From: a virus
Lineage: Duplodnaviria; Heunggongvirae; Uroviricota; Caudoviricetes
Length of the DNA: 12,185 nucleotides
Reading direction: 5' to 3' (one strand)
Virus record (IMG/VR): IMGVR_UViG_2541047898_000011
In this document: in pieces, positions 6,580 to 6,833 of the stretch
Numbering within the stretch: position 1 is the first letter of the stretch
How the letters are laid out: the number at the start of each line of letters is the position of its first letter
Position numbers and translations under genes: made by a program
The notes under the pieces: model-generated
Databases searched by the model: none
What the model was told of the DNA's origin: nothing
Seen by the model: only the letters and a program-made list of their open reading frames with translations

Positions 6580-6642
6580 CCAAACGACTTCACAGTTATT
6601 GTTTAAAATCTGGACTTTCATTTTGTTCTTTAACCTCCAGAT
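6580..6642. repeat. Repeat B copy 2
   Basis: Identical to 5952-6014; contains the stop codon and last four codons (KSGG) of the zinc-finger gene. Confidence 0.85.
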
Positions 6643-6833
6643 TTCCGCGCATCTAAAGGCGCATTCTCATTTGGTGTGAACTGAATAGTTGTGCTGATAT
6701 TGATTAATGCCCCGACACACAAGACTACGCACTCAGAGCAGATAGCAACTTCATCTTTTCCGCCTTTGGCGATGATTTTTTTTGCCTGCAGCTCGTTTGC
6801 GCCACAAAACGAGCATGTGAAATAACGGTTCAT
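6630..6833 (-). CDS. ClpX-type C4 zinc-finger protein, first gene of the leftward early operon
   Basis: CSFCG...(21 aa)...CSEC resembles the ClpX N-terminal zinc-binding motif; likely start is ATG at 6833 (MNRYF) with AAGAGAG upstream; ORF track gives 6630-6851. Confidence 0.5.
   Translation of the reverse strand: MNRYFTCSFCGANELQAKKIIAKGGKDEVAICSECVVLCVGALINISTTIQFTPNENAPLDARKSGG

Follow-up and report, generated by a model that had tools for sequence, protein, structure and literature searches.

The leftward early operon of the window (the whole stretch of DNA that was analysed, 12,185 nucleotides) opens with a gene for a small stand-alone protein that consists of a ClpX-type zinc-binding domain (ZBD) and a short tail. 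The gene is an optional cassette, always in the same slot. It is preceded by a structured leader RNA, and it is this RNA, not the zinc-finger gene, that is constant downstream of pL across the phage group. The coordinates of both, and of the features around them, are collected in Table 1.

The window comes from an E. coli lambdoid prophage of the SfII/SfV/CPS-53-like kind and corresponds to its immunity and early region, with YfdP/Q/R-type genes on the left side. The location of pL is inferred from two operator-like palindromes and by analogy with the pR/OR region; at that place a consensus promoter scan made no call. PADLOC defence models gave 0 matches. Two phage proteins encoded at 10456-11142 and 11462-11851 have, as read from their translations, the C-termini ...EMAA and ...GAAA, which resemble ssrA-like C-terminal ClpX pore degrons.

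Table 1. Features of the immunity and early-left region, in coordinates of the window
Feature	Position	Strand	Basis or remark
Stand-alone ClpX-type ZBD protein, 67 aa	6630..6833	-	ORF list, Pfam, AF2, Foldseek
A8 run inside the zinc-finger gene, codons AKKI	6776..6783	-	
Shine-Dalgarno-like AAGAGAG	6840..6846	-	6 nt 5' of the ATG at 6833
Three-helix RNA motif in the pL leader	6854..6927	-	Helix P1 closes the junction; P2 and P3 are hairpins within it
Inferred pL (-35 TTGCGT, 7035-7040; -10 TATCTT, 7012-7017)	7012..7062	-	Sequence reading
Two 15-bp operator-like palindromes, TTGCR-N5-YGCAA	7026-7040 and 7048-7062		Overlapping pL
Intrinsic terminator 3' of the repressor gene	7081..7098	-	Also annotated as terminator in SfII
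CI-type repressor (HTH plus Peptidase_S24)	7118..7810	-	Pfam
Cro	7908-8168	+	
CII, CP76/YmfL-type	8161-8712	+	
O-family replication initiator	9057-9998	+	
Second leftward gene, 68 aa, phrog_15476	6364..6570	-	SfII has the same gene
Repeat D2b ("repeat B"), 80 nt	6563..6642		93% identical to 5935-6014
Repeat D2a	5935..6014		Module boundary before the full-length 91-aa gene (phrog_3195)

A ClpX-type zinc-binding domain standing alone

The initial annotation had read a ClpX-like C4 zinc finger in the protein, and profile and structure comparisons bear this out. The Pfam model zf-C4_ClpX (PF06689) matches at 41.3 bits against a cut-off of 27 (E=1.4e-10). The cysteines C7, C10, C32 and C35 (CxxC...CxxC) are invariant among relatives and align with C14, C17, C36 and C39 of ClpX, and a signature of CSFCG, K-[IL]-I-A and IC-x-ECV is common to both proteins. 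The best sequence matches in the PDB are the E. coli ClpX ZBD entries 2ds5/1ovx. An AF2 model of the monomer, built from nine family members, has a moderate mean pLDDT of 70.6 overall and block means of 77-88 over residues 1-40 (four 10-residue blocks). It places the folded ZBD at residues 1-50, with a low-confidence tail (residues 51-67) that is predicted to be disordered from about residue 53. When the model was compared with the PDB by Foldseek, the top seven matches were all ClpX ZBD or ClpX, and the next had a match probability of 0.21; for six isolated-ZBD chains the TM score was 0.69-0.83 (target-normalised) and the rmsd 1.4-2.0 Å, at 36-41% identity. The predicted structure is thus a C4 treble clef that can be superposed on the solved ClpX ZBD, and the lack of structural likeness that the initial annotation had named as a refuting outcome was not observed.

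The likeness has its limits. Residue F9, the equivalent of the ClpX hydrophobic-pocket residue F16, is invariant in the family, whereas A42, the equivalent of pocket residue I46, varies among relatives (A/T/V/S/I/K), so that the cargo pocket is half conserved. The beta-hairpin carries a 3-residue insertion relative to the ClpX ZBD. Unlike ClpX, the protein is the product of a phage immediate-early gene and has neither the linker nor the AAA+ motor; NCBIfam ClpX models reach 23-26 bits on the 67-aa protein against cut-offs of 359-371. Because the AAA+ module is absent, the protein is not a ClpX orthologue.

The domain assignment itself is already public, since RefSeq names the identical protein WP_001083098.1 "ClpX C4-type zinc finger protein"; in PHROGs it is assigned to phrog_5259, which is listed without function. 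Literature searches for this phage ClpX-ZBD protein family found no functional or experimental study. The family is narrow, as HMMER, run exhaustively over 1.8 billion representatives, returned only 15 cluster representatives at E<=1e-10. Weaker matches were mostly proteins made of 2-4 tandem ZBD-like repeats. These uncharacterised repeat proteins (P0017, P0019, P0024, P0026 and similar ones, one of them with 22 repeats) outscore ClpX itself against the phage zinc-finger protein. Stand-alone ZBD-like proteins are also found in other phages, e.g., a 65-aa protein of a Pseudomonas phage, and some relatives have unrelated C-terminal extensions that bring them to 112 and 121 aa (IMG/VR L074-L092, L067-L071; P0012, P0013). 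In the 112-aa Salmonella variant the extension is modelled by AF2 as helical, at low-to-moderate confidence, and gave no clear lead. This Salmonella form is extremely common, with more than 13,000 indexed blocks of an assembly collection. YdaE of the Rac prophage, a "zinc-binding protein", was considered as a homologue and rejected, its sequence being unrelated.

Reading frame, slot and module boundary

An alternative start, the ATG at 6851, would give a longer ORF of 73 aa (6630..6851, minus strand). The N-termini of all homologues read MN.Y/L.TCSFCG, however, and divergent variants have their ribosome-binding site immediately 5' of the ATG of this shorter form. On these grounds the start is at 6833 and the product is 67 aa long, in agreement with the length first proposed. 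Variants across E. coli and Salmonella measure 61-63, 67, 112 and 121 aa and keep the first 46 codons. Between them pN is 0.16-0.22 vs. a pS of 0.41-0.93, with synonymous sites largely saturated; the dN/dS values that are computable come to about 0.1-0.3. The zinc-finger domain is under strong purifying selection and the ORF is a real gene. At its A8 run, alleles that have lost or gained one base (207 and 209 nt) and are unannotated as a gene account for 9 of 30 sampled records, and the resulting 35-aa stub is present in 5 IMG/VR loci. Such alleles, in which the protein is cut to 35 aa, are also frequent in other prophages, ST131-type strains included. The length alleles could reflect slippage-prone inactivation or phase variation.

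The first-gene position claimed in the initial annotation stands. Between the repressor stop (7118) and the zinc-finger gene there is no minus-strand ORF of at least 40 aa, and in relatives, too, the zinc-finger gene comes first in the pL operon. In 72 of the 77 IMG/VR loci, the nearest upstream ORF on the same strand encodes an S24 repressor, at a spacing of 171-341 nt, or of about 1075 nt where a reverse-strand gene intervenes. The intervening gene encodes a BRCT-domain protein and was seen in one prophage group (L005, E. coli STEC799). In Salmonella and in other homologues the zinc-finger gene likewise comes first, about 200 nt past an S24 repressor, and in E. coli genomes it is found beside at least four different repressor alleles. 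Clustering of the repressors at 70% identity gave eight groups, of which six were run against Pfam by a representative; all six (6/6) contain Peptidase_S24, making seven Pfam-verified families together with the window's own type. The description as first leftward gene generalises because the same slot is used beside at least seven unrelated S24 repressor families.

The gene is nevertheless absent from most members of the group. Of 5426 complete E. coli genomes, 98 carry it. The leader/operator region is present, at >=80% coverage, in 396 genomes, and in 12 of these (about 396) the leader and the zinc-finger gene are joined as in the window. In SfII, the leader and the next gene are near base-for-base identical to those of the window, and a clean gap of ~225 bp takes the place of the zinc-finger gene. 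A scan of one genome per species brought up two distant Clostridia relatives only and carries little weight for the distribution. Since the gene is missing from most sibling phages and often frameshifted, any benefit that it confers would be conditional.

The stop codon was originally noted to lie inside repeat B, and the TAA at 6630-6632 does fall within this repeat, D2b. On the minus strand, D2b reads GGAGG, the zinc-finger stop, and then a gene start, MKVQILNNNCEVVW... The gene that begins MKVQILNNNCEVVW is full length at 5718-5993 and is present at 6574-6621 as a truncated copy of 15 codons, MKVQILNNNCEVVWA*. All 67-aa alleles end at the D2b junction, and other alleles run into different sequence and so acquire different tails. 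The stop within the repeat simply reflects that the gene overlaps the ribosome-binding site belonging to the module that follows, an ordinary boundary in a mosaic lambdoid genome and not a property of the protein. The stretch 5431-6642 holds two tandem cassettes, each composed of one small leftward gene, one small rightward gene convergent to it, and the boundary repeats D1 and D2; the 15-codon remnant of gene 5718-5993 belongs to the second. A perfect 91-nt repeat, found at 5431-5521 and 6086-6176, marks the limits of the two cassettes together with D2. The number of cassettes varies among E. coli genomes, as unequal recombination between the repeats would produce. The Rfam sRNA STnc100 gave a match over its full length at 5252-5475 on the minus strand, though below threshold (43.4 bits vs. 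47, E about 1e-7); its 5´ end lies inside the 91-nt repeat at 5431-5521, and it overlaps the long ORF 4755-5435, probably spurious.

A three-helix RNA in the pL leader

The ~70 nt of the leader element are almost invariant across loci that have unrelated operators and three different variants of the zinc-finger gene, and they are more conserved than the zinc-finger coding sequence itself. A set of 48 distinct leader sequences fits a single three-helix junction, and RNAalifold independently arrived at the structure that had been drawn by hand. In the alignment 94.5% of the cells are paired, and double compensatory changes are seen in all but two of the 14 pairs (12/14). The covariation score of 0.613 compares with at most 0.134 when the partners are slid, and was reached by 0 of 500 shuffles. 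The invariant single strands are CACGAAGUAGC, GGCRUAYGAA and AUGA. Pairing alone does not decide the strand, with 7 G.U vs. 18 A.C cells and hardly any difference in the fold energy of the alignment; the context favours a location on the pL transcript. A covariance model of the element, R1, finds one copy per phage, scoring 84 bits in the window, and no copy on the pR side.

The element is shared by SfII, SfV, SfIV, ST64B, SPN3UB and ZF40, and extends to phages of Yersinia, Pantoea, Klebsiella, Citrobacter and Aeromonas and to T5-like Providencia phages. Annotation was inspected for five lambdoid phages (ZF40, YeP1, pAEv1818, SPN3UB and AH07); there it begins ~100-170 nt past the repressor stop, and the first gene behind it differs. 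Every zinc-finger locus with upstream sequence carries it (79/79), and in the 77 loci where the match is full length, 20-28 nt separate its end from the zinc-finger ATG. Rfam holds no match for the leader RNA, and no known RNA family was found in the leader or in the repeats; a literature search on the leader sequence returned nothing relevant. It is an undescribed structured RNA and a less expected object than the zinc-finger gene.

The leader has points in common with the put RNAs of HK022 and HK639, which likewise are ~70-nt RNAs a short way past pL in N-less lambdoid phages and which suppress terminators in cis by binding the zinc domain of the RNA polymerase beta-prime subunit; in HK639, as in the window, there is a single copy on the pL side (annotated as putL-like RNA). 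In contrast to put, which consists of two stem-loops, the leader is a three-helix junction, and its covariance model gives no match in HK022 or HK639. The R1 model scores at most 11.4 bits anywhere in HK639 and at most 8.1 bits in the 10.5 kb of HK022 that were searched, which include the pL/nun/cI/cro region. Homology to put was rejected on the basis of these scores and of the number of helices. The lack of N would agree with a put-like role, although only as an analogy. Two further candidates were dropped: a mini-ORF in the leader, MNDRMIR*, the start codon of which is not conserved in the Salmonella variants, and a hammerhead-type ribozyme, to which the strand lengths and their order in the junction do not conform by inspection.

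Possible roles of the zinc-finger protein

Our preferred reading, put forward tentatively, is that the protein may mimic the ClpX N-domain as an immediate-early decoy and compete with it for adaptors and substrates, a kind of role that the initial annotation had also suggested. That it would be the first natural trans-acting decoy of this domain is slightly less likely. The ZBD of ClpX is the docking site of SspB and RssB, strong ZBD-binding peptides have an LKxh motif in common, its hydrophobic side pocket (F16, I46) has lambda O, trigger factor, SspB and RssB as ligands, and degradation of lambda O requires the ZBD (PMC7226468; PMC7804408). The isolated ZBD supplied in trans inhibits RssB-dependent degradation of sigma-S in vitro (PMC7226468). 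That competitor is free and motorless, binds RssB and inhibits adaptor-dependent degradation, which is the mode proposed here for the phage protein; it is, however, a laboratory fragment of ClpX itself, whereas the phage ZBD is a natural and diverged gene product.

Once the repressor is inactivated, a free ClpX-type ZBD would be made as the first leftward early product. It would form a ZBD-like dimer with a docking surface of the ClpX N-domain type and soak up either the tails of SspB-/RssB-type adaptors with LKxh-like motifs or N-domain-dependent substrates. These would thus be withheld from ClpXP, and degradation by the pore route (ssrA-type tags) would be unaffected. Phage early proteins would be likely beneficiaries, in particular the O-type replication initiator, since degradation of lambda O needs the ZBD; the phage does encode an O-family initiator. 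Alternatively, ClpXP-dependent host responses could be blocked. The variable C-terminal tail would merely result from recombination at the module boundary.

Lambda CIII (FtsH) and T4 PinA and T7 Gp4.5 (Lon) are phage inhibitors of host AAA+ proteases. As small early proteins that dampen an ATP-dependent protease of the host, they resemble the proposed decoy. None of the three is known to copy a domain of the protease itself, and none is known to target ClpX. If the decoy reading is true, a phage copy of the docking domain of an unfoldase switches off adaptor- and N-domain-dependent degradation while pore-dependent degradation stays intact. We found no description of such a strategy for ClpX in the literature searched, and the protein would be a natural, selective tool to separate the two recognition routes of ClpXP. 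Some observations point the other way. Judged by sequence, the variable I46 equivalent (A42) and the 3-residue hairpin insertion weaken the case, and CsfB, which has a ZBD-like dimer and a partner unrelated to ClpX (PMC5890618), counts against it. The helical C-terminal extensions modelled in some relatives hint at more than passive competition.

Such extensions would suit an adaptor or a poison subunit, which is an unlikely role for the protein. It could pair with the ClpX N-domain or dock on ClpX and deliver a target via its C-terminal part, or mixed dimers could disable ClpX. ClpX naturally dimerises through this domain (PMC5890618; PMC7226468), and the 112- and 121-aa relatives have extra C-terminal parts, predicted to be helical in the 112-aa form, that could bind cargo. 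The decoy is favoured over the adaptor because the 67-aa form is made up of the domain and a variable disordered tail only: it has no second folded part, and a tail that is set by the recombination joint and differs between alleles provides no second domain for an adaptor role. The identity to the E. coli ZBD is, moreover, only 36-41%. The ClpX ZBD dimer is reported to be very stable, which would make subunit exchange unlikely.

Equally improbable is an early regulator that acts independently of ClpX, in which the target of the zinc ribbon would be RNA polymerase, a sigma factor, DNA or an RNA such as, perhaps, the leader. Small zinc-finger regulators are known from phages (Mu Com, P2 Ogr), and the gene lies close behind the leader RNA and beside the immunity region. 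CsfB of B. subtilis (PDB 5N7Y), an anti-sigma factor that uses a ZBD-like dimer, is like the phage protein a small stand-alone treble-clef zinc protein resembling the ClpX ZBD (PMC5890618). With ~20% identity to ClpX, however, CsfB was judged to be possibly unrelated (PMC5890618), whereas the phage protein passes the Pfam model for ClpX and is far more similar to the true ClpX ZBD. Furthermore, many phages have the leader RNA without the zinc-finger gene, the SfII operon is the same without it, and there is neither an arginine-rich motif in the protein nor a boxA in the leader. We give very little credence to a joint system, in which the leader would be a third, so far unrecognised class of cis-acting early-operon RNA in N-less lambdoid phages, analogous in function to put, and the protein would bind this RNA or its polymerase site and tune read-through, with no action on ClpXP.

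It is highly improbable that the gene is a decaying passenger with no current function: its patchy occurrence (98/5426 genomes) and the A8 frameshifts (9/30 records) would be in keeping with this, but not the strong purifying selection across variants that have saturated synonymous sites, nor the fixed slot beside many unrelated immunity regions.

The idea that the gene stands in place of lambda N, and that its product functionally replaces this antiterminator, fares worst and is close to refuted. The gene is the first of the pL operon, and no N homologue was found in the early-left region of the window by ORF list, Pfam or PHROGs. Against this, SfII, a working and inducible phage, keeps the leader and the downstream genes and has neither N nor the zinc-finger gene, which is joined to the leader in only 12 of ~396 genomes and is commonly frameshifted in resident prophages, and no nut-like boxA match was found in or near the leader. 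The lineage is without N and nut regardless of whether the zinc-finger gene is present, and early regulation in these N-less phages does not hinge on the gene.
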